A DNA stretch of 64,000 nucleotides. Origin: a virus (Duplodnaviria > Caudoviricetes). Shown piece after piece: positions 29,975 to 62,700 of the stretch (the stretch's first letter is position 1; every line of letters begins with the position of its first letter). The position numbers were made by a program, and so were the translations under genes. The notes under the pieces are model-generated. The model had not been told where the DNA came from. It searched no databases and was given only the letters and a program-made list of their open reading frames with translations. The stretch covers positions 1-64,000 of the IMG/VR virus record IMGVR_UViG_3300035498_000575, one strand, 5' to 3'.

Positions 29975-30073
29975 ATGAATACCTCCTAAATATTTTAAGC
30001 ATAGCATCTTGACTGTAATAACTTACAGTCAAGATTATTTTCTTCGGATTTATAATATATAATTATTTAGCCT

Positions 30074-31556: not shown

Positions 31557-31680
31557 AATTATCAACTCCTTTTCCAATTATATAATATATAATTGAAATA
31601 ACATATAACAACGTGACCTATCAAAGATCGCGTTGTTATATTAATCTATAATATGATTGGAGGCCATCTAGTATATATCA

Positions 31681-37098: not shown

Positions 37099-37187
37099 TT
37101 TAAAAAAGTAATTATGATTAACATTTAGTTAGGATAGATATATTTTTCTAAGTCTATCTATAAAAATAATAAAAGGAGGTGAAAAAT

Positions 37188-38597
37188 ATGAATAGAAATC
37201 TTAGTTATACAAAAATAAGATTATATCCAAATATGAATACATTCAGAAAACTAAAAGTAATGACAGATTATTATTCTGAGTGGTATAATGAAAAATATGT
37301 TTCATTCAGTGGCAATGAGAATAAATATGAATCATGTAATTTACACTACAAATATAATTCTAAGCCATATGATATAGAAGAAACTAAAAAGTTATCTAAT
37401 ACTTTCTGTATACCTAATTCATGGGTATCTATGGAGTATGGTGAAATAACTAATATGAAGGATATGTTATCAACAAGAAGAATGTATAGATACATAAACT
37501 TCAATCCAGATAGAATATCAGTAGAATTAAGTTCTGATGGAAAAAGATGTAACTTAAGAATAACTGAGCATAATAATTTAACTATCGCTATTAATGATAG
37601 ACGATTTAATATATATGATGAAGATCATTTTCTAGGTCTTCAAACTGACAGTATAAAGTCATGTAGGATAGTAATGTATGATAGTCATGAAGGTGATATC
37701 AATACATTGAATAGATATAAATTCTATTTAGTGCTTGGTTTTCAATGTGTAGACATTACTCCAGCCAGAAAACAATATGAAAAGTTTGTCAATGAAAATG
37801 AGCATGTTGGTTTGGATGTAGGAGTTTCAAATTTATGTACGTTATCAAAACCAGTTACAATAAACGGAAAAACTACTAGGCTAATAAAATGGCCCAGTAA
37901 GAATCTAAAATTAAAACATCATATTTATGTATTACGTGATAAATTGACTAAGTTAACAAATAGAAAGAGGTCAGTAATGTATAAATCTGGTCAGCGAATG
38001 CCTAGAATTAAAGACATGATGACATCAGATGAGGAACTATCTAAGTTATATTACGAATTACGTAGATGTGAAGAAAAACTGATGAATCAAAGAAGAACTT
38101 TTATACAAAACTTTGTTAGATATTTATTCAGCGTTTATCCTGTTGTATGTATGGAACATGACTTACGCTGGAGATCGCAATATCAAAACACAATTAAATA
38201 TTTTTCATTCATGATTTCATGCGGTGACTATCTACAGTCGTACATAAAATCATATGTTAGAAAGCATGGATATGTTGTGGTTCAAACACCAAGACAATTT
38301 AGTAGTTCACACTGCTGTTCAACAGTGTTGGAATACGATTTGAATGGTAGACCTATATCATTTTGTAATGGATATATCAGTACAACAAATTTGCCTATAA
38401 GTAAACGTGATTGGAGATGTCCTAAATGTGGTGCATATCACAATAGAGATATCAACGCAGCTAGAAACATAGAGCAAGTTGGTGACATGTGCATAGATTA
38501 CAAGTTGATTAACGGAAGATACCCAACTAAAAACGTTCATGTGATTACAGGAAAATTAAGATACAAAAAACCAATGTCATACGAATGGTTAAATTAA
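37188..38597 (+). CDS. tnpB: TnpB-like (IS200/IS605 OrfB, Cas12f-related) RuvC nuclease, full length
   Basis: KIRLYPN N-terminus; VGLDVG (RuvC-I); VCMEHDL (RuvC-II); SSHCCS...CPKCG Zn finger; HNRDINAARNI (RuvC-III); AGGAGG RBS. Confidence 0.88.
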   Translation: MNRNLSYTKIRLYPNMNTFRKLKVMTDYYSEWYNEKYVSFSGNENKYESCNLHYKYNSKPYDIEETKKLSNTFCIPNSWVSMEYGEITNMKDMLSTRRMYRYINFNPDRISVELSSDGKRCNLRITEHNNLTIAINDRRFNIYDEDHFLGLQTDSIKSCRIVMYDSHEGDINTLNRYKFYLVLGFQCVDITPARKQYEKFVNENEHVGLDVGVSNLCTLSKPVTINGKTTRLIKWPSKNLKLKHHIYVLRDKLTKLTNRKRSVMYKSGQRMPRIKDMMTSDEELSKLYYELRRCEEKLMNQRRTFIQNFVRYLFSVYPVVCMEHDLRWRSQYQNTIKYFSFMISCGDYLQSYIKSYVRKHGYVVVQTPRQFSSSHCCSTVLEYDLNGRPISFCNGYISTTNLPISKRDWRCPKCGAYHNRDINAARNIEQVGDMCIDYKLINGRYPTKNVHVITGKLRYKKPMSYEWLN

Positions 38598-38716: not shown

Positions 38717-38963
38717 AACAGTTACATCAAGGATTTTACATGCTATACTAAGGCAAAACTATACTAGTAACTGATATGTTAAATGTTTTCACATCGCTAA
38801 TTCGAAAGATATAAATCTTTACTAAAATGTTATATGTATCTGCAAATTTTAATATCTTAATCTATCAAAAATGCGTACATTTAGCCGATTTTTATATTTA
38901 TGTATAAGATAAAAACAATCCTGTAATAAGAAATAAATCTATAATATTTATGAGGTGATTAAA

Positions 38964-41900
38964 ATGGATTTAAGAATAATTAAAAAGAATGGGGAACTTC
39001 AAGATTTTGATATGAATAAAATCATAACAGCTGTCAATAAATCTGCAAATAGAGTGATGGTAGATTTCACAGATGATGATATAAGACAATTGAAAATGAA
39101 CGTTAGATCTATGTGCGCTGATTACTGTAATACACATGATGATCTAATTCCAATAGAGGTAATGCACAATATCGTTGAAGTTTCTCTCGATAAAGTAAAT
39201 AAGGATGTAGCGACTTCATACAGAGAATATAGAAATTACAAAACTAGTTTTGTAGAGATATTAAATAATGTCTACAAAAAGGTGCAGTCAATTATGTACA
39301 TAGGAGACAAAGACAATGCAAACACTGACAGTGCCCTAGTTTCAACAAGAAGAAGTTTGATCTACAATCAATTGAATAAAGAACTTTATCAAAAGTTCAA
39401 TATGAGACCTGATGAAGTCCAAGCATGTAAAGATGGATATATTTACATACATGATATGGTAGCAAGGAGAGATACAATAAATTGCTGCTTATATGATATG
39501 GAAAAAGTTTTAACTGGTGGATTTGAAATGGGTAACGTTTGGTATAACGAACCAAAAACCATAGATACAGCTTTTGATGTTATGGGAGATATCGTTCTAT
39601 CAGCTGCAGCACAACAGTATGGAGGATTTACAATTCCTGAAGTTGATAAGATATTAGAGCCATATGCAATAAAAACGTATGAAATGTATCGCGACGAATT
39701 TGCAGAATGTAATGGTTATACTAGCTATGATAGGATGTTGTGCACAATAAAGAGTTTCTTTGGTTCTAGTGAACAGAATAGGATTCGTTCTAGATGTGAA
39801 GAATATGCGAAGAAGAAGTTAAATCGAGATATTGAACAAGGTTTCCAAGGTTGGGAATATAAATTCAATACAGTAGGTTCTTCACGTGGTGATTACCCAT
39901 TTATATCTATCTCATTTGGATTATGTGATAGTGAATTTGGTAAGATGATAAACAAGGCATGTTTAAAGGTAAGAATGAATGGACAGGGAAAAAAGGGAAA
40001 TAAGAAACCGGTTTTATTTCCTAAACTTACTTTTTTATATGATCACAATATACATGGAGAAGGTTGTTCGTCAGAAGATGTTTTTGAAGCAGCCATTAAT
40101 TGCTCACAAAAAGCCATGTATCCTGACTACTTATCTTTAACAGGAGAAGGTTACATCCCATCTATGTACAAAAAGTATGGTAAGGTAGTAAGTTTAATGG
40201 GTTGCGTGCATGGCGACTCTGAAGTAACTATTTCTTCGGCAGAAAATGGGCAAGAAGATATAAAAATTAGTGATTTATGGAATCGCTTAACAGATGATGG
40301 GTATAACGTATTAGAACAGATTGAAGGTGAAGACAGATTTACATACATCGATTTTAGCGAAGGCGGTGCACAGATAGATATATATGACCAAATGACTGGA
40401 TATGTACGCGTTAGAAAGATAATTAAAAATAAAACTAACGAATGGATTTTATTTAAATTCGGCAATGGTGAGCAATTACAATGCACACCAGATCATCCAC
40501 TCCCAATATTCTATAAAGGAAGAATAAGGGCAGATGAAGTTTGTATTGGTGATGAGATCCATTGCTATGATGATGTTGAAGATGGTAATTCAACCAGAGT
40601 AGTAAGTATCCAGCACATACCTTGTCATATGGAAGATAGTTACGATGTGGAAACTGATACAGATCATTTCACAGTAAATAATATCTGGTCACACAATTGC
40701 AGGGCATCACTATCACCTTGGTATGAAAGAGGTGGTATGGAACCAGCAGACGATGACGACTATCCAGTTTTTGTTGGTAGGTTCAACATGGGCGCTATCT
40801 CTTTAAATCTCCCGTTGATACTAGCCAAAGCTAGAAAAGAGAATAGAGATTTTTATGAAGTTCTTGAGTTTTATATGACAATGATTAGAAGGATACATTT
40901 GAGGACTTATGAATATATTGGTGAAATGAAAGCTAGCACCAACCCACTTGGATTCTGTGAAGGTGGATTCTACGGAGGTCATTTGCAACCAGATGAAAAG
41001 ATAAAACCTCTTCTAAAACCTATGACTATGTCATTTGGTATTACTGCATTAAACGAATTACAAAGATTATATAACGGAAAATCACTACATGAAGATGGTG
41101 AATTTTCTCTTGAGGTCATGAAGTGGATTAATAATAAGATAAATGAATACAAACATGAAGATGGTATATTATATGCAGTATATGGATCACCAGCAGAGAG
41201 TTTATGCTTCTCAGGTGACACACTAGCGTGGACAGAAGACGGAAGAATTCCAATTAAAGATCTTAAAGAGGGAACAAGAGTTTTCTCATACGATGAAACT
41301 AGTGGAGACACAGTTCTCAAGCCAATAGTAAGTCAAAAGATGACATCTCCATCCGATAGGACTATGTATGTTCATTTTGAAAATGGAGACTGTATTTTAT
41401 GTACGTTCTTCCACCCATTTGCTGTATTAAACGGCGATGGTACCAGCATAAAGTATAAACCTGCATATCTTTTAACTGAAGGAGATAATGTTGTGACATC
41501 TAGTGGTACTGTCAGATTTTCAAATTTCTCAAGCATGCTTGAGGATATTCCGGTATATAATATAGAAGTTGAAGACTTACATAATTACTTTGTATGCTCT
41601 ACCAAGGAATCTGATGCCTACCTAGTACATAACTGCGGTCTACAAGCTGAGCAATTTAAGAAATTATATGGTGTAATAGAGAATGTCTCAGATAGAGGAT
41701 ATGTATCCAACAGTTTTCACGATCATGTTACCGAAGACATCACAGCTATAGAAAAACAGAATGACGAAGGTAGATTTTGGGATCTGTTTAATGGTGGTAA
41801 GATACAATACTGTCGCTATCCATTGAATTATAATGCAGAAGCGATGAGGATTATTGTACGTCGTGCTATGGATAAAGGTTTTTATGAGGGCGTTAATATG

Positions 41901-42086
41901 AGCTTAGCTTATTGTGACGACTGTGGTCATAGTGAGTTGGAAATGGATGTGTGTCCTAAATGTGGTAGCAGGAATTTAACTAAAATAGATAGAATGAATG
42001 GATATCTAGCTTATTCAAGAGTTAAGGGTGATACAAGATTGAATAAAGCTAAGATGGAAGAAATAAAAGATAGAAAAAGCATGTAA
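38964..42086 (+). CDS. nrdD: Anaerobic ribonucleoside-triphosphate reductase with two inteins
   Basis: ATP cone, YIYIHD, INCC, FPKL, MG|CR, CDDC...CPKC, glycyl-radical loop RMNGY. Confidence 0.95.
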   Translation: MDLRIIKKNGELQDFDMNKIITAVNKSANRVMVDFTDDDIRQLKMNVRSMCADYCNTHDDLIPIEVMHNIVEVSLDKVNKDVATSYREYRNYKTSFVEILNNVYKKVQSIMYIGDKDNANTDSALVSTRRSLIYNQLNKELYQKFNMRPDEVQACKDGYIYIHDMVARRDTINCCLYDMEKVLTGGFEMGNVWYNEPKTIDTAFDVMGDIVLSAAAQQYGGFTIPEVDKILEPYAIKTYEMYRDEFAECNGYTSYDRMLCTIKSFFGSSEQNRIRSRCEEYAKKKLNRDIEQGFQGWEYKFNTVGSSRGDYPFISISFGLCDSEFGKMINKACLKVRMNGQGKKGNKKPVLFPKLTFLYDHNIHGEGCSSEDVFEAAINCSQKAMYPDYLSLTGEGYIPSMYKKYGKVVSLMGCVHGDSEVTISSAENGQEDIKISDLWNRLTDDGYNVLEQIEGEDRFTYIDFSEGGAQIDIYDQMTGYVRVRKIIKNKTNEWILFKFGNGEQLQCTPDHPLPIFYKGRIRADEVCIGDEIHCYDDVEDGNSTRVVSIQHIPCHMEDSYDVETDTDHFTVNNIWSHNCRASLSPWYERGGMEPADDDDYPVFVGRFNMGAISLNLPLILAKARKENRDFYEVLEFYMTMIRRIHLRTYEYIGEMKASTNPLGFCEGGFYGGHLQPDEKIKPLLKPMTMSFGITALNELQRLYNGKSLHEDGEFSLEVMKWINNKINEYKHEDGILYAVYGSPAESLCFSGDTLAWTEDGRIPIKDLKEGTRVFSYDETSGDTVLKPIVSQKMTSPSDRTMYVHFENGDCILCTFFHPFAVLNGDGTSIKYKPAYLLTEGDNVVTSSGTVRFSNFSSMLEDIPVYNIEVEDLHNYFVCSTKESDAYLVHNCGLQAEQFKKLYGVIENVSDRGYVSNSFHDHVTEDITAIEKQNDEGRFWDLFNGGKIQYCRYPLNYNAEAMRIIVRRAMDKGFYEGVNMSLAYCDDCGHSELEMDVCPKCGSRNLTKIDRMNGYLAYSRVKGDTRLNKAKMEEIKDRKSM
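40203..40697 (+). mobile_element. Mini-intein 1 (165 aa) in NrdD
   Basis: CVHGDSEV...CTPDHP...YDVET...IWSHN|C; no LAGLIDADG domain. Confidence 0.92.
41205..41633 (+). mobile_element. Mini-intein 2 (143 aa) in NrdD
   Basis: CFSGDT...CTFFHPF...VYNIEVEDLHNY...LVHN|C. Confidence 0.92.
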
Positions 42087-47322: not shown

Positions 47323-47427
47323 ACAAGAAGGAAGCGTAACGCTTCCTTCTATAAAATATGTTTTGTAAGTATATAAACCAAAAATATTTAGGCGAAATGT
47401 CTATATGAGAATATATTACAATATTGT

Positions 47428-47456
47428 TTGACAATAGAATTTATTATTTGGACAAT
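47428..47456 (+). promoter_or_regulatory. Host sigmaA-type promoter
   Basis: TTGACA-17 bp-GACAAT, then GGAGG and ATG at 47496. Confidence 0.5.
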
Positions 47457-47495
47457 ATGATAAATCAAAAATTGTTAATATGGAGGAAGAATTCT

Positions 47496-48617
47496 ATGAA
47501 AAAGAAAAAAAAGCAACAAATATATAATATAAAGATTGATTCGGATAAAGTGATGACTGAACAGGAACTTCGTGAATATTTATATGGTGAAGCTCCTACT
47601 TCTCCACTTGAGGTAATAGGTTATGAATTATCAGCAGGATACTTTTCTGCATGGTTAGTTGTGATTATATCGATAATCGCATTATTGATAGGCTTGTTTA
47701 TAGGCGGCTTTGATTGCGCCCGTAGATTTTCATTGCCTGTTTCAGAAGTATTCTCTCTAAGTCTTTCTAAGTCGGATTATGCGTATAGTCCTATGACTGG
47801 ACATATAGAATACGGATATAATAATTCGACTACGACTGGCTATAATATAACTGATAATCATAATGACGATACCGTCACCGGTCTTGACAGTTTAATTCCC
47901 GAAGGAATCAACGTTGACGGTGCGACAATTAATATTTATCAAGGAGATGTTTACATAGGAGACACCTATGACGATGCTGTTTATAATTATGAAAACCGAG
48001 ATAATCAATATATAAGCGCAACAGATAATTCTGGTAATAGCTCAACACCATCCGTCCAAAATCCGGATAATGATGAAAGTTCGAGTGTTTCAGAATCATC
48101 TGACACGGAAAATTTGGATATCGTTGAAAATAAAAATGATACCGAGTTAGATTCAGATGTCGTTGATGATAGTCAGATTGACGATAACGACGGAATCGAA
48201 ATTAATATTGAAAACCAAGATGTTTCTGACGACCAGTTAGACAAATCTGATAATTCTGATATTATTCAGGATAATAGTTATACCCATGCAAATGGGCCTA
48301 TAGTTTTCAATATTACTAAGTCATCAAGTGATGATGGCAACCCAAAAAAAGAAAAAGATGATACTAATATAGATATTCAGGATAGTAAAGATGATGATAA
48401 TGAAATCGACGTTGATTCTCCCGACCAGCCAATCGTGGAGGATACTGACGCTGATGACGTTATTACCATAGGTGATAGCCTAAGACTAGATGAATCTGGT
48501 TATACAAATTCATCTAGTGGAAGTCTATCCCAACTTTACTATGGCGTTATAATAAGCGCATTTTGGATGTTAATCACAATAGGTATAGTTGTATATCTCA
48601 AAAAACATAAGATGTAG
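47496..48617 (+). CDS. Membrane protein with two TM helices flanking a D/N/S-rich loop
   Basis: WLVVIISIIALLIGLFIGG ... YYGVIISAFWMLITIGIVVYLKKHKM. Confidence 0.7.
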   Translation: MKKKKKQQIYNIKIDSDKVMTEQELREYLYGEAPTSPLEVIGYELSAGYFSAWLVVIISIIALLIGLFIGGFDCARRFSLPVSEVFSLSLSKSDYAYSPMTGHIEYGYNNSTTTGYNITDNHNDDTVTGLDSLIPEGINVDGATINIYQGDVYIGDTYDDAVYNYENRDNQYISATDNSGNSSTPSVQNPDNDESSSVSESSDTENLDIVENKNDTELDSDVVDDSQIDDNDGIEINIENQDVSDDQLDKSDNSDIIQDNSYTHANGPIVFNITKSSSDDGNPKKEKDDTNIDIQDSKDDDNEIDVDSPDQPIVEDTDADDVITIGDSLRLDESGYTNSSSGSLSQLYYGVIISAFWMLITIGIVVYLKKHKM

Positions 48618-48696
48618 GCTAAAATCTTATGAATTTTGATTTGTACAAATATATCCATCCAACTTTATGAATGGAGTATTAGTTTTGAATATAAAA

Positions 48697-48726
48697 AAGA
48701 AGCAAGACTTTATGGTCTTGCTTCTT
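48697..48726. terminator. Bidirectional terminator overlapping the stop of TnpB-like gene 2
   Basis: AAGAAGCAAGAC-tttatg-GTCTTGCTTCTT flanked by A/T tracts. Confidence 0.75.
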
Positions 48727-49720
48727 CTTGTTTCAATATTAAATTTTCAATTCGACTATATCCTTCATTTGCTATCACTTTAGCGGCATTCACATCCCTG
48801 TCATGTATTTCACCACACACAGGACAAATGTATCTTCTTATTGTACACATGTCATGTATGTTGTAAGGCATATCCATTTTCATCTCATCGAGTACTGTAA
48901 TCCAACCGTTATTGATATTCTTACGTCTCTTTTTAACCGTAGTTAATCTTAGCTTAGGAATTTTGAACTCTTCGTCAGCTAGCAGATTGTATTGGTCTAT
49001 GACTATATTGCTTCTTTGAGTTGCTAAATCGTATGATTTAGCAGTATGTTTATTTTGTAGTGTACCTGTAATTGCAGAATTTACTGTATGTATACAGTTG
49101 TTGTATCTGGTCACGTTTCTTAAAAGAGTATGGTCTAAGTCAAGGAAGTTAGCACCATCAACCATTTGACTTTTTGTAAAAACTTCCATTGTATGGTTGC
49201 ATCTATATGTACTAATATATCCATAATCTAGTTGTATGCAACCAATTTCTTTCTCTTTACAAATAGATATTATATAGTCTTGTAGCCAGTCAATCACCCT
49301 TCCAATTATTTGAGCATCAACCCAGTATCTGTACTTTTCTCTTGAGTTAATGTCATCTCTGTCAATATTGTCCATTAGTTGTTTTTCTAAACATATAGCG
49401 TGTTCTATGACTAGAACTTTAATTTCATTCTCCTCTAGAATATTTTCAAGCTCCTTTTTCAATTGATCTTTTCTTTGGTTAATCATATTGATTATATTTC
49501 TTTCGACATCACTTCTACATTTTTCTGATGGGTACACAACGACTCCGTTTATTATATCGGCAGCGTTTTGTGTCCAAGTTACTGTATGCATGAAGTCTTG
49601 AGAAAACACCAGTTTTTGTGTCATCTTGCCATATAACGACAATGGCCTACTGAATGTTATAGGTGACGTCTTACCAACATCAATGCCTATTACATAATTA
49701 AATAGTTCATCAGTTTTCAT
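48710..49720 (-). CDS. TnpB-derived RuvC/Zn-finger protein lacking the N-terminal lobe
   Basis: VIGIDVG at residues 10-16, VLVIEH, CPVCGEIHDRDVNAAKVI; GGAGGT RBS. Confidence 0.8.
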   Translation of the reverse strand: MKTDELFNYVIGIDVGKTSPITFSRPLSLYGKMTQKLVFSQDFMHTVTWTQNAADIINGVVVYPSEKCRSDVERNIINMINQRKDQLKKELENILEENEIKVLVIEHAICLEKQLMDNIDRDDINSREKYRYWVDAQIIGRVIDWLQDYIISICKEKEIGCIQLDYGYISTYRCNHTMEVFTKSQMVDGANFLDLDHTLLRNVTRYNNCIHTVNSAITGTLQNKHTAKSYDLATQRSNIVIDQYNLLADEEFKIPKLRLTTVKKRRKNINNGWITVLDEMKMDMPYNIHDMCTIRRYICPVCGEIHDRDVNAAKVIANEGYSRIENLILKQEEARP

Positions 49721-49796
49721 TTATTATTACCTCCAATATATTTTATTTAGTAGTCCTGTAGGATGTAGCCTACAGGACGATTAAGTGATTTGACAA

Positions 49797-50153
49797 CTAA
49801 TATGACGTTTTTATTATATCGGTCGGAATAAGATTGTCAGCATCGTTAGTACAATACAGGAAATCTGATAAATAATCTGAATGGTGAATGCTTTTATACA
49901 ATTCGTCCTCAGGGTTATAGACAGCCGATATAAATGATTTGACTTCATCAGGTTTAAACTTATGTAATGCTGCTAAGATGGCAGCAACAATTTCAGCATC
50001 AGACTTTGATGTTAATATCATTGTGTTGACAACATTGTTGATGTAATCCATCTGTGAGATATCATCTAATTGTCCTATTAAACGGTAGCAATCATATGAT
50101 ACCCATTTTATAATATTACGTTCATATCTCTTCTTAATCAATAATTCTATCAT
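49797..50153 (-). CDS. Hypothetical protein
   Basis: AAGGAG RBS; in an early-type operon. Confidence 0.55.
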   Translation of the reverse strand: MIELLIKKRYERNIIKWVSYDCYRLIGQLDDISQMDYINNVVNTMILTSKSDAEIVAAILAALHKFKPDEVKSFISAVYNPEDELYKSIHHSDYLSDFLYCTNDADNLIPTDIIKTSY

Positions 50154-50182: not shown

Positions 50183-50569
50183 TTATAACATATCATTCGT
50201 TAAACCTCTAAGGTTCACCACATCCTCTTTCTTAGATTCTAATAAATCCAATGTCATTAATACTGCTGTTCTCTCCGAATTGGTTAGGTTGTCTTTTAAC
50301 AATGCACTTACGTGAGATATAGCATTATTGATATCAACCTCAACTTCTTCAGCGAATTCAATAGCGTTTTTAATTTCGTCTGCGGTAACGAATAAAGAGT
50401 TTATAACACTTATTTGTTTGTTAGGGTAGTTATAAACTACCCTTTCTTTTTCTTTTACAACAGGTTTTACGTAACCGTAAACTCGGTTATACCATCCTAT
50501 ACAATCATCTTTGTCGTATGACCAAGCTTCTATTTCGTTATACCTGTCATAAATGACATATACCTTCAT
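50183..50569 (-). CDS. Hypothetical protein
   Basis: GGAGGG RBS; MKVYVIYD start resembles the MKIYVAYE start of 30744-31373. Confidence 0.55.
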   Translation of the reverse strand: MKVYVIYDRYNEIEAWSYDKDDCIGWYNRVYGYVKPVVKEKERVVYNYPNKQISVINSLFVTADEIKNAIEFAEEVEVDINNAISHVSALLKDNLTNSERTAVLMTLDLLESKKEDVVNLRGLTNDML

Positions 50570-50589: not shown

Positions 50590-51006
50590 TTATTCGTTTA
50601 GTTGTAAAGATATAGTTTTTAAGATGATAGCATATACCTCAAGGTCGTAAGGTGGGATTATCCTACAAGCCATTTCACGTTCAAGTGATGTGAATATAGC
50701 ATCTGCTACCATCATACTTTCACCAGTAAACTTACCAAGCAATAATGCCAGTCTTTCACTAGTCTTTATCTTATTGTATGGTAAGTTTGTTATTTTATTA
50801 TTTTTGAAGTTATTGATTATCTCATCGTACTCCTTAATAATACCGGCTTTATACCTTTTTAATTCACGTCTTTTCATCCCATATGTGTCTTTGTCATTCC
50901 AAAACTGTCGTTCTATATTCTCAACATCAGATATGAATCTGTTCTTGATTTTAGAACTTTGGTCGTTTTTGTCTTGCTTATTTTTTGAATTAGAAAATAA
51001 CACCAT
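50590..51006 (-). CDS. Hypothetical protein
   Basis: GGAGGT RBS; early-type motif at 51052-51063. Confidence 0.55.
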   Translation of the reverse strand: MVLFSNSKNKQDKNDQSSKIKNRFISDVENIERQFWNDKDTYGMKRRELKRYKAGIIKEYDEIINNFKNNKITNLPYNKIKTSERLALLLGKFTGESMMVADAIFTSLEREMACRIIPPYDLEVYAIILKTISLQLNE

Positions 51007-51158
51007 ATTATTTACCTCCATTTATGGTCTTAGTTTATACGCTTGCATAAATATAATATATAATTAAATTTATTCTTTTTAAACTATGAGAAAAACGGTG
51101 TGAAATAAATGACATTACATTTAAATAACCAAAAAAATATTGAAGGGATGATGCTAAA

Positions 51159-54100
51159 ATGGCACAAAGTATAGAGAAGTTACCGTTTAATACAGGTATG
51201 ATAAGAAAATACACACTCCCTATTTCTAGTTCACCTGACGTTACACGCGGTAGAGGTGTATTATTGTTTTTGACAGGAGATGATATTAATTCTAACATAT
51301 CTACTATTAATGGTAAGTCCAATATCTATGATTATGGTAATACGTATAAAAGATACTATTTACCTGTAAGAATAAGAGGTAAGCTTGCTACTAAGACGAT
51401 TAATTATTACGATCCAACAACTCGTAAGAACACATACAAGTTAATTAAAAAGGCGTGTCCAAAAATAAAGGAAACACCGATAATGCCTCTTGAAAATACT
51501 AACCAGTTGATAAATTGTTATTTTGACATGTCGACTTATATAGGTATTTATAATCGTATATGTTTAAAGATGAATATAATGAGAAAGATCTCACTCTACT
51601 GGAGTTTTATGGATTTAGTATGGCATTCACCTCAGACCAATAAGTATCCAGTTAAGTACGTCCTAATAGATCTAAAGAATTTTGGTCCATGGACAGGAGA
51701 CCCTAAAGTTGATATATCTAACCCATCATATTTGATATACCATACACTATACAGATTTAAATCAGTGATACCCGATTCCTTGAAGGATTTGACATTCGTT
51801 TTATATTCTGATACAGCTGTGTTAAAAGTAAATATGGTAGACTTACGTGACATAGATAATGGTGCAATGATCTACAGAAGAGAGGTTAAGAAAGTACTAA
51901 GAACTTGCCCTCAGAAATCTATTACAGTAGATGCAACTTCTGAAGAAGCTAATATCATATACGATGAGATTAAATCTCATTTGGCTCAACGATATAAGTT
52001 TATCGGTGATGCTGAAAACGATGATAATACTGAGTCAATCAAGGTGTCTAATGAATACGAATCTGAAGAAGATCCTATGGATGTTCAGTTAAATAAAATA
52101 GACAATAAAGTTGAAAAGATAACTGCTGAGATTCTATCTGAGGTAGACGATGAGAATATTGATGATAAAGTTGGATATGTTGATACTGTAATTGAAGATA
52201 GGATAAATGATGATAAGGAACTCATTCAAACTATGTATTCAGTTACGCAGAAACAAAAGTGCCCAACTAAGCCATTGTCATCTGCAAGAGATGCTGAACT
52301 ACGTAAGAAACAGTCAGATATTAAAGTATCTGGTATGACGCTATCAGATCTTAACCAGATAAAGAGTAGTGATATAAAAATACCAGTTAATGATGTTAGT
52401 GCGAGCCTAAATACATCAAATAAAAATTTCTCTGAGGTTAAATTCTCGAACTTTGAAAAAGAGTACAATAACAAAGTAATGAAGCATGATATAATGAATG
52501 CATTCGAATCTTTGAATGACAAGTCGATACCTATGTATATCAGAGATATTAAGGTTGAGGATACATCAACGCCTATAGACTATAAGGAAACTTATACCAT
52601 CATGTTTGAGGATGCAAATAGACAACGTCATACAGTTAAAGTGGATATACCCAAGTTTATTGACGATAAGTTCATGTGGTTAGGAAGTAATAAGAAGATC
52701 ATTGAAAAGCAAGACTTTTTGTATCCAGTTGTTAAGGTAGACCCAATCACGGTACAAATAGTTACTAATTACAACAAGATGTTTGTAGGAAGATATGATA
52801 AGAAGAATAATGCATCTGTTGAAAGACTTCTATCGATTATTAAAAAGAATGAGTCTTATGCAAAGTATTTTACTGTAGGTAACACATATAATGCAAATAC
52901 ATCGTATGTTACTACAATTGAATTAGACCAATTAGCTACATTATTTACAAACGTAAATATGGGAGACCTAATGCTTAATTTTAATCTACCCGAAGCAGCA
53001 GCTAAGGCTACAACCAAACCTGAAAGCGGCAAACTATATATAGGAACTGAAAAGGGGAAACCTGTAATAGTAGATAGCTCTACAGGTAGATGTGTTGACG
53101 GTAGAAGTATTGTGGATACCATTGTGGATAATATGCCTGATGAAATGAGAAATGATTATTTAAAGACAAAATCACCAAAGAGGGTTACGTATACTACAGT
53201 AACTATAATGTCTCAAACTATACCATTTATTGTCTTACTATCATATTGGGAAGGCTTAACGACAGTAATGAAGAAGGCAAAAATAAACTACGAAATAGTA
53301 GATAAACGTCCATCATTAAGCGCTCGTCAAAACTACATCCAATTTAGTGATTGTTTTTTAGTGTATGACGATTCACTAGGCAGCGGATTATTGATGAATG
53401 GCTTAAAGATATTAGATACAGAGAACTACCCAATAACTGAATTTGATGAAGCAGAACCTTACATTAATTATTTTATCAAGGTTTATGGAAAGAGTGCTAT
53501 AACAGGTGCGTTAATAAACGCATATGAGTTTACTATAGATCCAATCACTAAAGAAGTATTACGTGACATTGGTCTACCAGAAGATCTTGTTGAATTGTGT
53601 ATATATGCTAATAACTTACTAGCCGATAACGCTTACACGTTTGAGGGTGACCAGAGATTGTACCGTATAAGATCAAATGAAATTATAGCAGCTATTTTAT
53701 ATAAGGAAATAAGTAATAAGTATGTCACCTACAGAAATAGTGGTGGTAAGAAGAGATTCTCTATTCCTCGAGACGCGGTTATTAAGACGTTGTTAGCACA
53801 AGAAAATGTTAAGGATTACTCTACTCTAAATCCGGGAACAGAGTTGACTGAGAGCAGAGTTTTGACATGTAAAGGCTTTAAGGGATCTAACGTACAAGAA
53901 GCTTATAACCTAAAAAGACGTTCTTACCCTAATTCTATGCTAGGTGTATCAGCGATATCAACACCATCTGATGGTAATGTTGGTGTAACTAAACACATGG
54001 CTCTAGAACCTACTGTTACTAATGTCAGAGGTTACTGTGATCTAAAGTATCAAGATCCTGATAGTTTAAAGGACGTAAACTTACTATCGCCTGATGAGCT

Positions 54101-55340
54101 AATGTATCCTATAGCTGGTTCACATGATGACCCAACACGTATATGTATGGCTAGTAAGCAAACAAACCATATCGTTCCTACAACTAAAATGCAGTCAGCA
54201 TTAATTTGTAATGGTATGGAAGAAGCAGTTAGATTTAACCTATCAACCGATTATGTTGTTAATGCTAAAATGGATGGAAAAGTCATAGAGGTTGATGATA
54301 AGAATAAGATGATTGTAGTTGAGTATAAAGATGGCACACACCAAGTGCTTGATTTAAGTTCTAACATTGTAAAAAACGGTGGTGGCGGTTTCTTTATGAA
54401 CAACAAGAAGATTTCTAACTTGAAGGTTGGAGATAAGTTTAAGAAAAACGATTTATTAGCTTGGCACGAGGGATTTTTCACTAACGATGAAATAAACGGA
54501 CCTAGACTAAAAATCGGCTCTCTACAGAAAGTTGCTATTACCACCTCTTATGCAACATATGAAGATAGTACTTTCATTACCGATAAGCTGGCACACGACT
54601 GTGCTACATCAATGACGTTTAGAAAAGACATAGTTATTGGTAAGAACTCCAACCTAGAATATATCATTAAGGTCGGTGATCATGTTGAAGTAGGAGATAC
54701 ACTTCTTCAATTTGATACATCCTATGAAGATAGTGAACTAAATAAACTCCTTAAAAATATTGGTGAAGACTTGCAGGAAGAAGTTCTTGAAAATAGTAAA
54801 AACAATGTCAAGAGTAAATATGCTGGAGAAGTTGTTGATATCAAAATATATTCACCGGTTCCATTGGAAGAGCTTAGTCCTAGTCTACAAAAATTAGTGG
54901 GTAACTATTATAAAGGTAATAAGTCAAAATATAATAAGATAAAATCATATGCAACTGATGAAGAAAAAAAATCAGTATATGCGTGCGGTGTTTTAATGAC
55001 TGATCCTGTGGATAAAGTAGAACCTAATAGATTTGGGGTAATCCGTGGTGAGAAAGTTGGCACTGACAACATCAAGATAGAAGTTTATATTGAACACGGT
55101 GATGTAATGGGTGTAGGTGATAAACTTGCCTATTTTGCAGCACTTAAGGGAACTATTGGTGAAGTTATTCCAAAAGGATTGGAACCCTATACAACTACTC
55201 GTCCTGACGAACAAGTAAGTGCTACCATTGCATCAAATAGTATATTGAAGCGTATGGTTCCTAGTATTATACTTAACGTGTTAGGTAATAAAGTTTTAGT
55301 TGAGTTAAAGCGTAAGCTTAAGGAAATATACGAGTCATAA
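51159..55340 (+). CDS. Phage multisubunit RNA polymerase beta-like subunit with a long N-terminal extension
   Basis: DIPKFIDDKFMWLG, STPSDGNVG, HDDPTRICMASKQ, TYEDS, GDKLAYFAALKG (both conserved Lys), SILKRM. Confidence 0.85.
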   Translation: MAQSIEKLPFNTGMIRKYTLPISSSPDVTRGRGVLLFLTGDDINSNISTINGKSNIYDYGNTYKRYYLPVRIRGKLATKTINYYDPTTRKNTYKLIKKACPKIKETPIMPLENTNQLINCYFDMSTYIGIYNRICLKMNIMRKISLYWSFMDLVWHSPQTNKYPVKYVLIDLKNFGPWTGDPKVDISNPSYLIYHTLYRFKSVIPDSLKDLTFVLYSDTAVLKVNMVDLRDIDNGAMIYRREVKKVLRTCPQKSITVDATSEEANIIYDEIKSHLAQRYKFIGDAENDDNTESIKVSNEYESEEDPMDVQLNKIDNKVEKITAEILSEVDDENIDDKVGYVDTVIEDRINDDKELIQTMYSVTQKQKCPTKPLSSARDAELRKKQSDIKVSGMTLSDLNQIKSSDIKIPVNDVSASLNTSNKNFSEVKFSNFEKEYNNKVMKHDIMNAFESLNDKSIPMYIRDIKVEDTSTPIDYKETYTIMFEDANRQRHTVKVDIPKFIDDKFMWLGSNKKIIEKQDFLYPVVKVDPITVQIVTNYNKMFVGRYDKKNNASVERLLSIIKKNESYAKYFTVGNTYNANTSYVTTIELDQLATLFTNVNMGDLMLNFNLPEAAAKATTKPESGKLYIGTEKGKPVIVDSSTGRCVDGRSIVDTIVDNMPDEMRNDYLKTKSPKRVTYTTVTIMSQTIPFIVLLSYWEGLTTVMKKAKINYEIVDKRPSLSARQNYIQFSDCFLVYDDSLGSGLLMNGLKILDTENYPITEFDEAEPYINYFIKVYGKSAITGALINAYEFTIDPITKEVLRDIGLPEDLVELCIYANNLLADNAYTFEGDQRLYRIRSNEIIAAILYKEISNKYVTYRNSGGKKRFSIPRDAVIKTLLAQENVKDYSTLNPGTELTESRVLTCKGFKGSNVQEAYNLKRRSYPNSMLGVSAISTPSDGNVGVTKHMALEPTVTNVRGYCDLKYQDPDSLKDVNLLSPDELMYPIAGSHDDPTRICMASKQTNHIVPTTKMQSALICNGMEEAVRFNLSTDYVVNAKMDGKVIEVDDKNKMIVVEYKDGTHQVLDLSSNIVKNGGGGFFMNNKKISNLKVGDKFKKNDLLAWHEGFFTNDEINGPRLKIGSLQKVAITTSYATYEDSTFITDKLAHDCATSMTFRKDIVIGKNSNLEYIIKVGDHVEVGDTLLQFDTSYEDSELNKLLKNIGEDLQEEVLENSKNNVKSKYAGEVVDIKIYSPVPLEELSPSLQKLVGNYYKGNKSKYNKIKSYATDEEKKSVYACGVLMTDPVDKVEPNRFGVIRGEKVGTDNIKIEVYIEHGDVMGVGDKLAYFAALKGTIGEVIPKGLEPYTTTRPDEQVSATIASNSILKRMVPSIILNVLGNKVLVELKRKLKEIYES

Positions 55341-56433: not shown

Positions 56434-56575
56434 ATTTTTATACCTCCATAAAATCTGTGGATGAATAGTTTAGTAATATAAGTTATCCACGGAACTTAAA
56501 TTACTTTATTGTTTATGCGAATTAAAATTCTATTAAACCTTAATTCTCGTTTATAATATATAATTGAATCACGTT

Positions 56576-57363: not shown

Positions 57364-57507
57364 GATAATTACCTCCAATTGTATTTTAGTATTATTCATA
57401 CCGCATTTATAATATATAATTGTACCGATTTTTTGCAAAAATACAGCTGAAAGGTAAGGTGAAAACAATATATTAAAAATCAGATTAAATTCGAAAGGAG
57501 AATTTAT

Positions 57508-60500
57508 ATGGCCAATAATAAAAGAGCAAGTACGGAAGTACGACGCGTAGCCCCCAATGCAAATTGGGTCAATAATGCGTTGAAGTCTTTGGGACTAAGT
57601 GCGTTGAATGTAGCAGAAGAAATAATGCCTACAACTTATACGACAATGCATGATTCCATGGGCGAAGCTAATAAGTACATTCAAGAAATGCGTAAGGGAA
57701 AATCAAGTCAACAAAGAATTTCCGATACGCTAAAAAATAATGCGATCATTAAAGGCGCGGATGAGATTATAAAGAACGGTATCAAGGATTTAAAATCCGG
57801 TAATATTTATAATAAAACTAGAGACAATATGACTAAAAATATGATGGGTGATATGGGTCTTGATGATTTGGAAGATGCCTTTAATGATTTCGATGATATA
57901 GATTTTGGTGATGACATATTTACAGATGAAGATGACAGCACAGCTGATTCTAATACAAATGTAGTAGTTCAGAACGATAATAGAGTAAACGTCTCACCTG
58001 ACAGTTATTCTCAAGCTGCTGCTTTGGAGCCAGTAACTAACGCAGTTACACAAGCTGCAGTTGTTCAAGCACAGGCTACACAGGCGAGCAATACTGTCCT
58101 AGTAGAGATGGCTTCAAGGAATCTATTCCAGAATAAACAGCTTGGAACAGATGTAATCAATAAGTTAAGTTCAATTGAATCGCATCTATCAGCAATGGTT
58201 CAGTATAATAATGAATCAATGAGTAAATACATCGAAGCGTCAATAGCGTATTATGATAAGGCACTACCTAAGCAGAAAGAATCTGAGTATCAAAGTGCTA
58301 ATAATGATAATGCACTATTTGGTGAAAAGGGAGAACTTAACATAAAGAATTATCTTTCAGGAATGAAAGATAGTTTTATGAAATCAGTTGGAGATACCGA
58401 TTTAGGATCCATTATATCTTTCTTACCTATGATGAAAGATATGCTTGCTGATAATCCTATTGGACTTATTCTAAATGCAAGTATGAAGGGTATGATTCCC
58501 GGACTAGCGAAGAAGTCTCTCACAGATTTGGATAATGCGTTTAAATCTTTTACGCCAGCTTTACTAGAAAAGTTTTCGGACTACACTTATCAAGGCGATA
58601 ATGATATGGTAGGTACCGTAATGGAAACGTTGATACGTACATTGGGCCGAAAAGAGAAGAATAAAACAGGAATTGATGTAGGTGCTGTCACAAAAGAAAA
58701 TGTTGCTTGGGATAGTATTAGTAGACATACTTTAGTCGAAATTATTCCAAAGTATTTACGTGAGAGTACTGCTTATTTGAAAGCCATTACCGCTACAGTA
58801 ACAGGTGATGACGATACGAGTGCTATATTAGACAGTGCAGATATATTTAATTTCAAAAATGGAAATTATACAACACGAAAGAAACTACAACGTGACTACT
58901 TTGAAGAGATAGAAGACTCAGCCGTTGATAGTTTTGATAGAAGTAGTTTTTCTAAGGCATTATCTACAGCTGGTGGTGTTTTAGATCGTGATGATAGAAG
59001 TTCATATGATGACTTAGTTAAGCAATTTAAATTTAAATTAGTGCAAGGAAACAAGCGAATTGATAGGGAGAATAACCCAGAATCGATACGTGCGTTGATA
59101 GATGGATTGACTGGAGATGATAAATATAAAGAATTATTAATGTCCGCTATTATGAATATGAGTAACAGCGACTTTATGAGTGGAGACGCTGCTAGACGTG
59201 CAGGTGTAAGATCCTACGCACAAAAACTAGAAGAGATTGAAAAGAATCCTGCGGACTATAGGCTTTATGATATATATGATAGTGCCAGTCTAAATAATAA
59301 AAATGTTAAGAATGATGTCTATAAGTTTCAACAACAGCGTGCTAATAGAAATTTTGTCACTGATGCACCTGAGCCAGTTAATGAAGTCAGTGTAAGCATT
59401 AATAGACTACCGGGATCATTAGGAAACGGTCCTGTAGCTATATTAGGTGATATCAGAGAAATATTATTGCGTGGAATTAATGTTCGTGTTGATAGAGCAT
59501 CATCTAAATTATATGGTAGAAATATTCCAGACTATATCGAACATCTTGAACAACCCAACTTTGTCGGACCTGTTCCGCAAAGAACCAATAATAACCAAGA
59601 TACCAACAGTTACACTACTAACGAACCTACTGAAAGCCATACAGAAGATGTTGACAAGGCTGAGGTAGTTAGAGGTCAATATGATGAAGAAGTTATTAAC
59701 GCTTTTGAAAGTGAAGAATGGTATGAAAATTACAAAGCCTCTAATGGTTCTGATAGTATTCTGGGGGATATAGCTCCAGCTTCGGTACGAGAAAAGAGAA
59801 CTGAACTAGGAGAAAAGGCACAAAGACAAAGTGAAAAAGCTAAGAATATGATGTACAATATCATTTATGGTGGAGCAGACCAAGCGGTAAACGCGATGCT
59901 GACTAACCTAAGTGAGAAGGCTATTGATGCTGGTACCAAATTATTCGATAGCTTTGTAAAGCCTGTCGTTGGTTACGTGTTTGAAGATGATGAAGAGAAT
60001 GGTAGAGTGTCCATTGCTACTAGAGTAGAAAACACGATATCTGATGCGGGTAAGGGTATACAATATTATTTATTTGGAAAGGGCTACACAAAATCTGACG
60101 GTACTGAAGTTGCTGGCATGAATGCAGACCAAATTAAGGAAGAATCATTTGCCGGTAGAATGAAGACGATGTTCGGTACCACTGTTAGTAGCATAAATGA
60201 ATATTTATTTGGTAAAGAAGATACTGAAGAGGACTCCAATAAACCCAAGCTCTCATTAACTCAGAAAATGACTAATATAGCTGTCGATAGTATGATGGAT
60301 TGGAGAGACGTGGTATTCGGTGAAGAATCTGAAAGAACACCTGAGGCAAGAACTGAAGCTATTGAAAAAACTAAAAAGTTTGCTATGAAGGCTATACCAA
60401 ACACGCTAGTTTCTACTGCTGCTATTACAGGTATAGGTGCGTTATCAGGTGGATCTTTGTTAGGTGCCGCACTAGGAGGTCCTTTAGGATCAATAATTGG

Positions 60501-62700
60501 ATTAGGTATCGGTATAGCTTCTAGTAGTGAAGACTTCAAGGAGAAAGTATTCGGTAAAGAAAATGAAAACGGTGAATACATTGAAGGGCTGATATCCAAG
60601 AAGACACAAGATTTCTTCAAAGAAAATAAATCTAATATTATCGGCGGTGCTGCTGTAGGTTTAACTAAAAATCTAATACTCGGTAGTAGCGGTGGTATAC
60701 TCGGAACTCTTGTAGGTGGTCCGATTGCAGGTGCATTATTGGGAGCAGGCTTTGGTATGATAAAGAAGTCTGAATCTTTCCAGAATTTATTGTACGGTAA
60801 AGAAGAGATAGACGAGAATGGAGTCAAGAAACGTGTTGGCGGCATATTAACCAAAATGCACGGTCCTAGTAAGGATGCTATGATTAAAGCCGCACGTATG
60901 GGTGCTACTGGTGCTATAGGTGGAGGTCTTATTGGAACTATGCTTGGTGGTCCTATTATGGGATCTCTTATCGGTCTATCCACAGGTATATTAGCAAGCG
61001 GAGATAAATTCCAAGATTTATTGTTTGGACCAAAGGATAGCGACGGTAAGCGTGACCCTAATAAGGGTATATTGAGTAGATTCACTAATTTTGCTAAAAT
61101 ATCTATTTTCAAACCTCTCGAAAATGCATTCAGTAACAGTGCTGCTATGATAAAGCATCACTTAAAATACAGTATAACCGAGCCTATCAAAATTGCTTTT
61201 TCACCACTTGCTGCTAAGATTAAGTCAAAAATTAATGACCTTAATGATTTAGGAAATACGATAAAAAGTAGTATAAAAAACGGTATAAAAGGTTTCTTTA
61301 GTGGTATATGGAGAAAAATCGTAAATAGTAAGTTAGGCCAAGGTATTGGTAAAATCCTCGGTGGGGCTGTGAAGTTACCTACCAAAATTTTAGGAGGAGC
61401 AGCCGAGACATTCAGGCGAGCAATGTATACTATTGGTGCGACCAATCAGGTTGCTGGTGTCATAGGAACAGGTATTTCTAATACTATTGGTGGTAAGGGT
61501 CTACTTAACATTGATAGATTCAAGGAAAACTTGAAGGGAACATCAATTGGACATGGCGGTGTGACCGCACTATTGAAATCTGGTGTTCAAAATATTGCGC
61601 ACGCTGGAAAAACACTCGTTAACTGGAAAGGTGATGGCGAGGAGAAAGGCACGTATGATAAAGCGCTTGAGGATGCTGGTTTACTAGACTCACATGTATT
61701 TGCGGGTATTAAAAAGAATGAACGTGAACGTAAAGCTGATTATGAAAGTATTAAGCGCCAAGCAAGGTATAATTCCGCAGTACAACAATATCAAAATGCT
61801 GTAATGGCAAGTACTGGATATAGTCTTCCAATGAATAAATACGGTTTAATTGATAATGATGCATTAAATGCAAGTATTAGTGAACGTGCTAAAAAAGAAA
61901 TGGAAGAGTATAACTCTAAGGCTAGGTCATTCTTTGGTAAGAAAAATCAGGCATATTTTGAAGATAAAATACGTAAAGATTTTGACAAGCGAACCAAGTC
62001 TGCAAGAAAAAATCTTGGTATTGACAGTACTGACATTGCTGATATTAATGAAGCTATCTTGAATCACGTTGATAGAGATAGTGGAAAGAGTATTAGAGAC
62101 TTAATGGAGGCTGATAAGCCAAAGACTGAGGAACAGCTAAGAGAAGAACAGAATGCAGTAGCTGAGGAGAAGTTCAGAACTGAAGTTATAGACACATTTA
62201 ATAGTGTAGGATCTGATGTTACTACTATCAGAGAAGAAATAATTAAGATTGAAGCTGCAAGACGAGCACAAGTAAACGGTACATCTATAGCACGAGCAGA
62301 GGAACAAACTCGAAACGATGTCGATCAAGCACAACAAGTTTTTGATAAAACTAGTGGCAACAATGAAGCTAAAAAGAAGGCGGCGAATGCTAGATTAAAG
62401 ACAGCTGCTAATTCTCATAAGAATGAAAACCGTGAACCTGTTGATAATCCAATACTTGGTGATTTTAGTGGGTTAGATACGGAAATGGGTGCTGAAGGTT
62501 TTGCTGATGGTACTGATAATGCTAAATCTGGTGTTAGAGTCGTTGGTGAACGTGGCCCTGAGCTTGTTAGATTTAGAGGTGGAGAATCAGTAACGGCTGC
62601 TAACAGGATACAGTCTGCGCTTGGAAGAGCATTCCGTAGTGATAGTGATTTGCATGTCAATAGAAGAACGTATGCTAAGTGTATTGATATCATTACGTAG
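57508..62700 (+). CDS. Giant tape-measure-like tail protein, N-terminal part
   Basis: Three Gly-rich hydrophobic GGP repeats; FADGT...VGERGPELV motif; late-type promoter at 57464-57475. Confidence 0.7.
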   Translation: MANNKRASTEVRRVAPNANWVNNALKSLGLSALNVAEEIMPTTYTTMHDSMGEANKYIQEMRKGKSSQQRISDTLKNNAIIKGADEIIKNGIKDLKSGNIYNKTRDNMTKNMMGDMGLDDLEDAFNDFDDIDFGDDIFTDEDDSTADSNTNVVVQNDNRVNVSPDSYSQAAALEPVTNAVTQAAVVQAQATQASNTVLVEMASRNLFQNKQLGTDVINKLSSIESHLSAMVQYNNESMSKYIEASIAYYDKALPKQKESEYQSANNDNALFGEKGELNIKNYLSGMKDSFMKSVGDTDLGSIISFLPMMKDMLADNPIGLILNASMKGMIPGLAKKSLTDLDNAFKSFTPALLEKFSDYTYQGDNDMVGTVMETLIRTLGRKEKNKTGIDVGAVTKENVAWDSISRHTLVEIIPKYLRESTAYLKAITATVTGDDDTSAILDSADIFNFKNGNYTTRKKLQRDYFEEIEDSAVDSFDRSSFSKALSTAGGVLDRDDRSSYDDLVKQFKFKLVQGNKRIDRENNPESIRALIDGLTGDDKYKELLMSAIMNMSNSDFMSGDAARRAGVRSYAQKLEEIEKNPADYRLYDIYDSASLNNKNVKNDVYKFQQQRANRNFVTDAPEPVNEVSVSINRLPGSLGNGPVAILGDIREILLRGINVRVDRASSKLYGRNIPDYIEHLEQPNFVGPVPQRTNNNQDTNSYTTNEPTESHTEDVDKAEVVRGQYDEEVINAFESEEWYENYKASNGSDSILGDIAPASVREKRTELGEKAQRQSEKAKNMMYNIIYGGADQAVNAMLTNLSEKAIDAGTKLFDSFVKPVVGYVFEDDEENGRVSIATRVENTISDAGKGIQYYLFGKGYTKSDGTEVAGMNADQIKEESFAGRMKTMFGTTVSSINEYLFGKEDTEEDSNKPKLSLTQKMTNIAVDSMMDWRDVVFGEESERTPEARTEAIEKTKKFAMKAIPNTLVSTAAITGIGALSGGSLLGAALGGPLGSIIGLGIGIASSSEDFKEKVFGKENENGEYIEGLISKKTQDFFKENKSNIIGGAAVGLTKNLILGSSGGILGTLVGGPIAGALLGAGFGMIKKSESFQNLLYGKEEIDENGVKKRVGGILTKMHGPSKDAMIKAARMGATGAIGGGLIGTMLGGPIMGSLIGLSTGILASGDKFQDLLFGPKDSDGKRDPNKGILSRFTNFAKISIFKPLENAFSNSAAMIKHHLKYSITEPIKIAFSPLAAKIKSKINDLNDLGNTIKSSIKNGIKGFFSGIWRKIVNSKLGQGIGKILGGAVKLPTKILGGAAETFRRAMYTIGATNQVAGVIGTGISNTIGGKGLLNIDRFKENLKGTSIGHGGVTALLKSGVQNIAHAGKTLVNWKGDGEEKGTYDKALEDAGLLDSHVFAGIKKNERERKADYESIKRQARYNSAVQQYQNAVMASTGYSLPMNKYGLIDNDALNASISERAKKEMEEYNSKARSFFGKKNQAYFEDKIRKDFDKRTKSARKNLGIDSTDIADINEAILNHVDRDSGKSIRDLMEADKPKTEEQLREEQNAVAEEKFRTEVIDTFNSVGSDVTTIREEIIKIEAARRAQVNGTSIARAEEQTRNDVDQAQQVFDKTSGNNEAKKKAANARLKTAANSHKNENREPVDNPILGDFSGLDTEMGAEGFADGTDNAKSGVRVVGERGPELVRFRGGESVTAANRIQSALGRAFRSDSDLHVNRRTYAKCIDIIT

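Follow-up and report, generated by a model that had tools for sequence, protein, structure and literature searches.

To our knowledge, the RNA-guided targeting lobe is kept in all TnpB domestications characterised so far (the Cas12 subtypes, Fanzor, TldR, and the sigma- and SpoIIE-associated forms), and several of these drop catalysis. TldR and the sigma- and SpoIIE-associated TnpBs retain the RNA-guided DNA-binding lobe and have lost their catalytic residues or RuvC-III (PMC10691335; bioRxiv 10.1101/2023.11.30.569447). The phage protein described here resembles them as an immobilised TnpB descendant, off its transposon and selected for a new role, but its trajectory is the opposite one: the TldR-type combination of a lost triad and a kept RNA-binding lobe is inverted, with the catalytic residues intact and the guide-binding lobe absent. 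We refer to this form as headless. A literature search returned no description of a headless, catalytically intact TnpB, and the lineage is the reverse of the TnpB repurposings described so far.

The gene is found in a 102,416-bp IMG/VR phage record, the first 64 kb of which (64,000 nucleotides) form the window analysed here. CheckV places the record at 42% completeness, and the complete genome is therefore probably that of a jumbo phage of >200 kb. The stretch flagged by an earlier reading of the DNA alone (the sequence-only reading) consists of one ORF on the minus strand (48710-49720), encoding 336 aa, with an ATG start, an in-frame TAA directly upstream, and a GGAGG Shine-Dalgarno sequence (49730-49734, minus strand) 9 nt ahead of the ATG. 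The RuvC-I motif IGIDVG occupies residues 11-16, with ~10 residues preceding it. The three catalytic positions are D14 of RuvC-I (codon 49679-49681), E106 of RuvC-II, in VLVIEH (codon 49403-49405), and D309 of RuvC-III, in HDRDVNAA (codon 48794-48796), all on the minus strand and each invariant in 10/10 family members.

Like the TnpB of IS200/IS605 elements (ISDra2; PDB: 8H1J, 8EXA, 8BF8), the protein has a RuvC fold, a D-E-D triad, a TNB domain between RuvC-II and RuvC-III, and the C-terminal motif RxxxCPxCGxxHDRDxNAA, in which R295, ahead of CPxCG, is invariant in the headless family as it is in canonical TnpB. Pfam recognises only the last 23 residues of the 336-aa protein, which it assigns to the latter half of the Cas12f1-like TNB domain (PF07282; 25.6 bits with hmmscan, where the cut-off is 26.3, and 28.9 bits in a six-frame search). 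The PF07282 match recurs in 10/10 family members (best E 7e-10), with the second half of the domain alone aligning. Beyond the last ~30 residues, the likeness to TnpB is visible only at the profile or structure level. In hhalign, the family profile pairs with one built from 15 canonical TnpBs (98.9% probability, E 2e-17), family columns 11-185 aligning with TnpB columns 195-344 of 421, that is, from RuvC-I to the first Zn-ribbon Cys.

Structure prediction of the protein alone, which the sequence-only reading had proposed as a check, gives an AlphaFold2 model with pLDDT 82.5, residues 8-326 of which align with residues 185-378 of ISDra2 TnpB (VIA-align Z 13.0, rmsd 3.1, 170 aligned residues). 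The strong structure matches are all TnpB, Cas12f, Fanzor, or Cas12 nuclease lobes, followed by classical RuvC resolvases at Z ~9. With both the profile and the structure match confined to the nuclease lobe, the protein reads as the RuvC and TNB lobe of a TnpB from which WED and REC are absent, an assignment that draws on profiles and a predicted model; it is a member of the TnpB/Cas12 superfamily by descent. Compared with TnpB, it lacks the N-terminal ~185-195 residues (WED and REC), an omegaRNA locus, TnpA, and IS ends, and the WED/REC lobe expected of an OMEGA nuclease is missing, as alignment begins only at TnpB column 195 or ISDra2 residue 185. A candidate split arrangement, with the N-terminal lobe encoded by the small ORFs upstream, was rejected after negative hhalign and BLASTP results. 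The initial description, in which the protein begins about 10 residues before RuvC-I behind a strong RBS of its own, retains D, E, and D, and lacks WED and REC, is thus borne out. Each of the sequence features that this reading listed was recovered at the positions it gave.

Bacterial RuvC is an obligate homodimer that cuts four-way junctions symmetrically. The headless protein shares with the Thermus thermophilus resolvase (4LD0) a small stand-alone RNase H fold (Z 9.2, rmsd 3.7, 136 aligned residues), a match that is not discriminating because the RNase H-like fold is common to all TnpB and Cas12 proteins. It differs from the resolvase in being twice the size and in carrying a TnpB-type Zn ribbon and C-terminal motif. 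The RuvC profile PF02075 matches nothing in the 102-kb record, the headless ORF included, at E <= 1, and hmmscan lists no RuvC family; no other junction resolvase (RuvC, Endonuclease VII, RusA) is found in the record, which is 42% complete. Co-folding of two copies with the family alignment gave a score of 0.00, which speaks neither for nor against dimerisation. The sequence-only reading had offered a guide-independent nuclease or resolvase as the function: judged from sequence, guide-independent nuclease activity is plausible, and a resolvase role has no specific support.

The two halves of the Zn ribbon, STYRC (C174) and CPVCG (C299/C302), stand 125 residues apart, as opposed to ~33 in the full-length TnpB-like protein of the same phage (paralog 1, discussed below), close to the ~120 and ~35 aa first estimated. 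The ribbon is split by a 108-aa helical insert (residues 183-291; 48848-49174, minus strand) that measures 108-109 aa in every family member, and its first knuckle has one Cys rather than the CxxC of TnpB. The Cys residues around the insert, C174 and C292 and then C299 and C302, are invariant, and the insert itself is mildly basic (+2 to +6) in all members. Its predicted structure is a long helical hairpin to which a short beta element is added. When folded alone, it has no meaningful structural neighbour, its best match (Z 6.8) being flagellin helices, which is generic for helical hairpins.

Large Cas12 proteins carry a Nuc domain between RuvC-II and RuvC-III, and in the predicted model the insert lies topologically at this Nuc-domain position. 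Cas12a, Cas12i, and CasLambda have extra structure at the same point, and 198-222 residues of the model superpose on these enlarged-Nuc proteins (Z 9-12), as opposed to 170 on TnpB. An ESM Atlas feature search with the insert returned a Cas12a NUC/RuvC fragment cluster as its first match (0.87), which is below counting level and serves as a lead only. Unlike the Cas12 proteins, the headless protein has neither REC and WED lobes nor a CRISPR array, and its insert is a simple helical hairpin.

The headless form belongs to a small family. A HMMER search of 1.84 billion representatives, with no length limit, recovered full-length relatives P0004 (327 aa, 32% identity) and P0005 (350 aa, 29%) plus a fragment, and cluster look-ups added P0014 and P0113 (353 aa), P0114-P0117 (327 aa), and P0119 (343 aa). 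These represent four further clades, all metagenomic, whose members are 327-353 aa long, show 27-32% identity, and have common start and end points; among 5.8 billion proteins, the family amounts to five 90% clusters. In the alignment of ten sequences on which the invariant residues are based (A2), all members start 9-27 residues ahead of RuvC-I and contain no stops, and D14 (IGIDxG), E106 (VxEH), D309 (RDxNA), R295, C174, C292, C299, and C302 are invariant. A variant of the phage gene at 97-99% identity in a freshwater metagenome run carries two synonymous changes and one T275M in the covered parts.

Other collections returned no members. Neither the headless protein nor P0014 has a tblastn match in 50,697 GenBank phage records. 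Scans of IMG/VR, GTDB genomes, and metagenomes with the family alignment returned no member, their output being dominated by the generic C-terminal motif of TnpB, and collection scans with P0014 alone and with P0114 alone likewise found none. RNA polymerase beta (38% identity) led to the nearest IMG/VR relative, a fragment of 32 kb that is 12% complete and in which the family has no match.

The sequence-only reading had named full-length alleles in relatives as one mark of a decaying pseudogene. In the HMMER search, none of the close relatives was a longer allele, and no longer protein matched beyond the C-terminal motif. That the gene is a 5'-truncated tnpB remnant still open by chance is a reading we consider close to refuted, given that N-terminal boundary, length, insert, and catalytic residues agree across five clades without stops, and that the gene has a strong RBS, a dedicated terminator, and no N-lobe remnant upstream. 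What it has in its favour is that TnpB-labelled, TNB-only clusters of 203-269 aa occur commonly in the ESM Atlas, and many of them may be fragments; alternatively, headless forms may be commoner than realised. The fixed boundaries, insert length, and catalytic residues, maintained at 27-32% identity across five clades, indicate that the short form is under selection and is not a pseudogene.

Several features of the locus bear on whether the protein could use a guide RNA of its own. With a pI of 6.3, in a family ranging from 6.0 to 8.9, it is far from the ~9.7 typical of TnpB: the 15 canonical TnpBs have values of 9.4-10.2, their nuclease lobes alone 9.0-10.4, and paralog 1 has 9.4. An intrinsic terminator (48694-48729, minus strand) with a 15-bp stem precedes a U-tract at 48693-48683 (UUUUUUAUAUU on the minus strand), and its 5' arm is made up of the last five codons and the stop codon (48710-48712) of the gene (fold z = -5.3). 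A cis omegaRNA would lie over or after the 3' end of the gene, where this terminator sits on the stop codon and the gap to the convergent plus strand gene measures 92 nt and is occupied by two hairpins. We thus concur that there is no room for a downstream RNA. Rfam gives no match at or above the gathering score for the locus. Low pI, a terminator on the stop codon, and the lack of an Rfam match together fit loss of the omegaRNA scaffold, although an RNA may be supplied in trans.

There is likewise no sign of a transposon. Neither Y1 TnpA (PF01797) nor serine recombinase (PF00239) has a match in the 102-kb record, which is 42% complete, and no repeated flanks or IS ends were found around the gene. 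The adjacent TnpA and transposon ends that characterise IS200/IS605 or IS607 cargo are thus missing from this partial record, and the headless gene is not mobile as an IS. A 13-nt inverted repeat (48677-48689 / 49790-49802, 85% complementary) brackets the gene and its hairpins; as a candidate element boundary, it was set aside as probably a chance occurrence in AT-rich DNA.

The convergent neighbour (47424-48617, plus strand) encodes a 397-aa protein with no family match. Hydrophobic segments are predicted close to its two termini, and its long middle part is of low complexity, highly acidic, and D/S/N-rich. This gene is the best covered in gut metatranscriptome contigs. Contigs from three animal-gut metatranscriptomes span this neighbour and one gene upstream of the headless gene and do not span the headless gene itself, a pattern that, in contigs, cannot show absence of expression. 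The RNA contigs from three different animal-gut runs all stop at 48676, past a small hairpin (48654-48675). This position is probably the 3' end of the plus strand gene, so that each of the convergent genes probably has its own terminator.

The window also encodes a full-length TnpB-like protein of 472 aa, paralog 1 (37179-38597, plus strand), which matches phrog_506 over residues 8-439. The headless family is homologous to its RuvC core (hhalign E 2.9e-18). FastTree phylogenies of 98-101 TnpB nuclease lobes, three AT-rich TnpBs of phages among them, recover the headless family as a single clade (support 0.99) whose sister is paralog 1 (support 0.96). The branches are 1.4-2.5 substitutions per site, and because of their length, the sister position is possibly an attraction artefact. 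Paralog 1 groups with the headless family and not with the 95 other TnpBs. In a word-index search of 5.8 billion proteins (E <= 1e-5), it matched itself only. The two results suggest a divergent, phage-resident TnpB lineage. The tree and the hhalign link support descent of the headless family from such a phage-resident lineage; that the family instead preserves a pre-TnpB state, a stand-alone RuvC/Zn-ribbon nuclease, is less likely.

Common descent is also the sole link behind the two-component system of early and late members that had been proposed for these two proteins, a proposal that we do not uphold. In such a system, the headless lobe would dock on paralog 1, or on another TnpB-omegaRNA complex, and supply or regulate an additional RuvC site, somewhat as in the asymmetric Cas12f dimer. 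The presence of a full-length paralog in the same genome, the RuvC-core homology and sister position, and a neutral pI that suggests weak nucleic-acid binding by the headless protein alone would all suit docking. We nevertheless consider it unlikely, since the two genes are on opposite strands with 10 kb between them, the branches of the tree are long, and common descent does not show binding.

Upstream of the gene, a 10-bp hairpin with a 6-nt loop (GTCCTGTAGG/CCTACAGGAC; 49753-49778, minus strand) separates it from the preceding gene. The hairpin, which the sequence-only reading had noted, pairs exactly, is the sole copy in the 102-kb record, and was matched in 0/100 shuffles. It has no U-tract and is therefore unlike the terminators typical of this genome. 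The gene, which has an RBS and a terminator to itself, is flanked by this hairpin, and lies where transcription converges, has the appearance of a self-contained cassette, as might be expected of a free-standing, protein-only homing-type endonuclease that spreads selfishly among related jumbo phages and uses the insert as its DNA-recognition module. The rarity of the family, which is absent from the GenBank phage records and found in IMG/VR in this record only, would be compatible with such an element, as would the annotated abundance of homing endonucleases near the RNA polymerase genes of AR9-like and staphylococcal jumbo phages. However, composition and RBS leader are fully native (GC 0.333, compared with 0.337 for the window; the leader, GGAGGTAATAAT, is the common one of this genome and is also found at other window genes), and the insert matches no known DNA-binding fold. 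Identities of ~30% at fixed length, moreover, resemble old vertical descent in a poorly sampled clade, the adjacent RNA polymerase beta being itself only 31-38% identical to its nearest relatives. We therefore regard homing as a doubtful explanation.

That RNA polymerase beta-like protein (51159-55340, plus strand; 1393 aa) is 31-38% identical to the beta-like proteins of the AR9/PBS1-kind jumbo phages of Bacillus, Staphylococcus, and Listeria. In AR9-like and staphylococcal jumbo phages, the corresponding genes are frequently split or carry inserted homing endonucleases; 51159-55340 is one uninterrupted ORF. A second very large RNA polymerase beta-like ORF is found at 57508-62700 (plus strand; 1730 aa). 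Elsewhere in the window, an anaerobic ribonucleotide reductase NrdD (38955-42086, plus strand; PF13597, E 5e-101) contains a Hint/intein module at approximately residues 750-945.

In AR9, early genes are transcribed by the virion RNA polymerase from promoters with the experimentally defined consensus AAATATATATTAT-N6-G (PMC5312081). Allowing <=2 mismatches, a search for this motif returned 13 matches against an expectation of 5.4. The variant AATTATATATTAT-N6-G, one mismatch from the AR9 consensus, occurs at five minus strand sites (30045-30064, 31575-31594, 51046-51065, 56546-56565, and 57402-57421), each of which lies just upstream of a minus strand gene cluster. They probably mark the early regulon of this phage. 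The site at 51065-51046 heads a run of four genes, in which the headless gene comes last, behind three small genes without known function (50590-51021, 50183-50569, and 49797-50153), and no terminator-like site was found on the minus strand between the motif and the headless gene. The designation of this run as an early-type operon is supported by the motif at its head, as far as sequence can indicate. Within the end of the upstream gene, a sigma-70-like match (CTGACA-16-TATAAT, 11/12; 49813-49840, minus strand) could be an additional promoter belonging to the headless gene itself, or it may have arisen by chance, because an equally good match lies nearby on the opposite strand.

Early operons are where anti-defence genes commonly lie, and the protein could in principle be a non-catalytic decoy or regulator that mimics a nuclease lobe, for example as an inhibitor of paralog 1 or of a TnpB/Cas12-type system of the host. 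Its acidic-to-neutral pI, unlike that of nucleic-acid-bound TnpBs, would also suit this role. Invariance of the D-E-D triad and the active-site Arg at ~30% identity argues for selection on catalysis, and in TldR and the sigma-associated forms, the TnpB-derived regulators known to date, the catalytic residues are gone (PMC10691335), so that we consider a decoy quite improbable.

The reading we prefer, to which we assign a probability of roughly 0.5, is that of a RuvC endonuclease that derives from TnpB and does not carry a guide, which would be expressed early and have its substrate chosen by the helical insert or by a partner protein. Under this model, a TnpB descendant would have lost the whole N-terminal WED/REC lobe, with its guide-RNA and target-recognition functions, leaving the RuvC nuclease and Zn ribbon. 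The remaining protein would be an active DNA endonuclease with no guide RNA of its own. It would act on DNA early in infection, its likeliest targets being single-stranded or branched DNA arising during phage replication and recombination, or host DNA. From the structural biology of Cas12 and TnpB, single-stranded or branched DNA would be the most natural substrate, because a Cas12-type RuvC pocket would here be free of a gating REC lobe. As the protein is near-neutral and its insert has no known DNA-binding fold, it may need a partner, and it could then act in trans with an RNA-protein complex. A more specific version of the preferred reading, in which the protein is an autonomous, protein-only RuvC/Zn-ribbon endonuclease of jumbo phages, freed of the RNA-guided lobe, with the Nuc-like insert itself selecting the substrate, would make it the first natural case of its kind; we hold this version more tentatively.

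If the preferred reading is correct, the headless protein would mirror the nuclease-dead TldR route, and the lineage would widen the known evolutionary routes open to the TnpB nuclease. It would also provide a natural RuvC/TNB module of 336 aa in which DNA loading and cutting of the Cas12 type could be studied without R-loop or gating. Should the protein instead act in trans with paralog 1, the two would form a natural split or two-subunit TnpB system. For AR9-like jumbo phages, the headless gene would represent a so far unrecognised early function.
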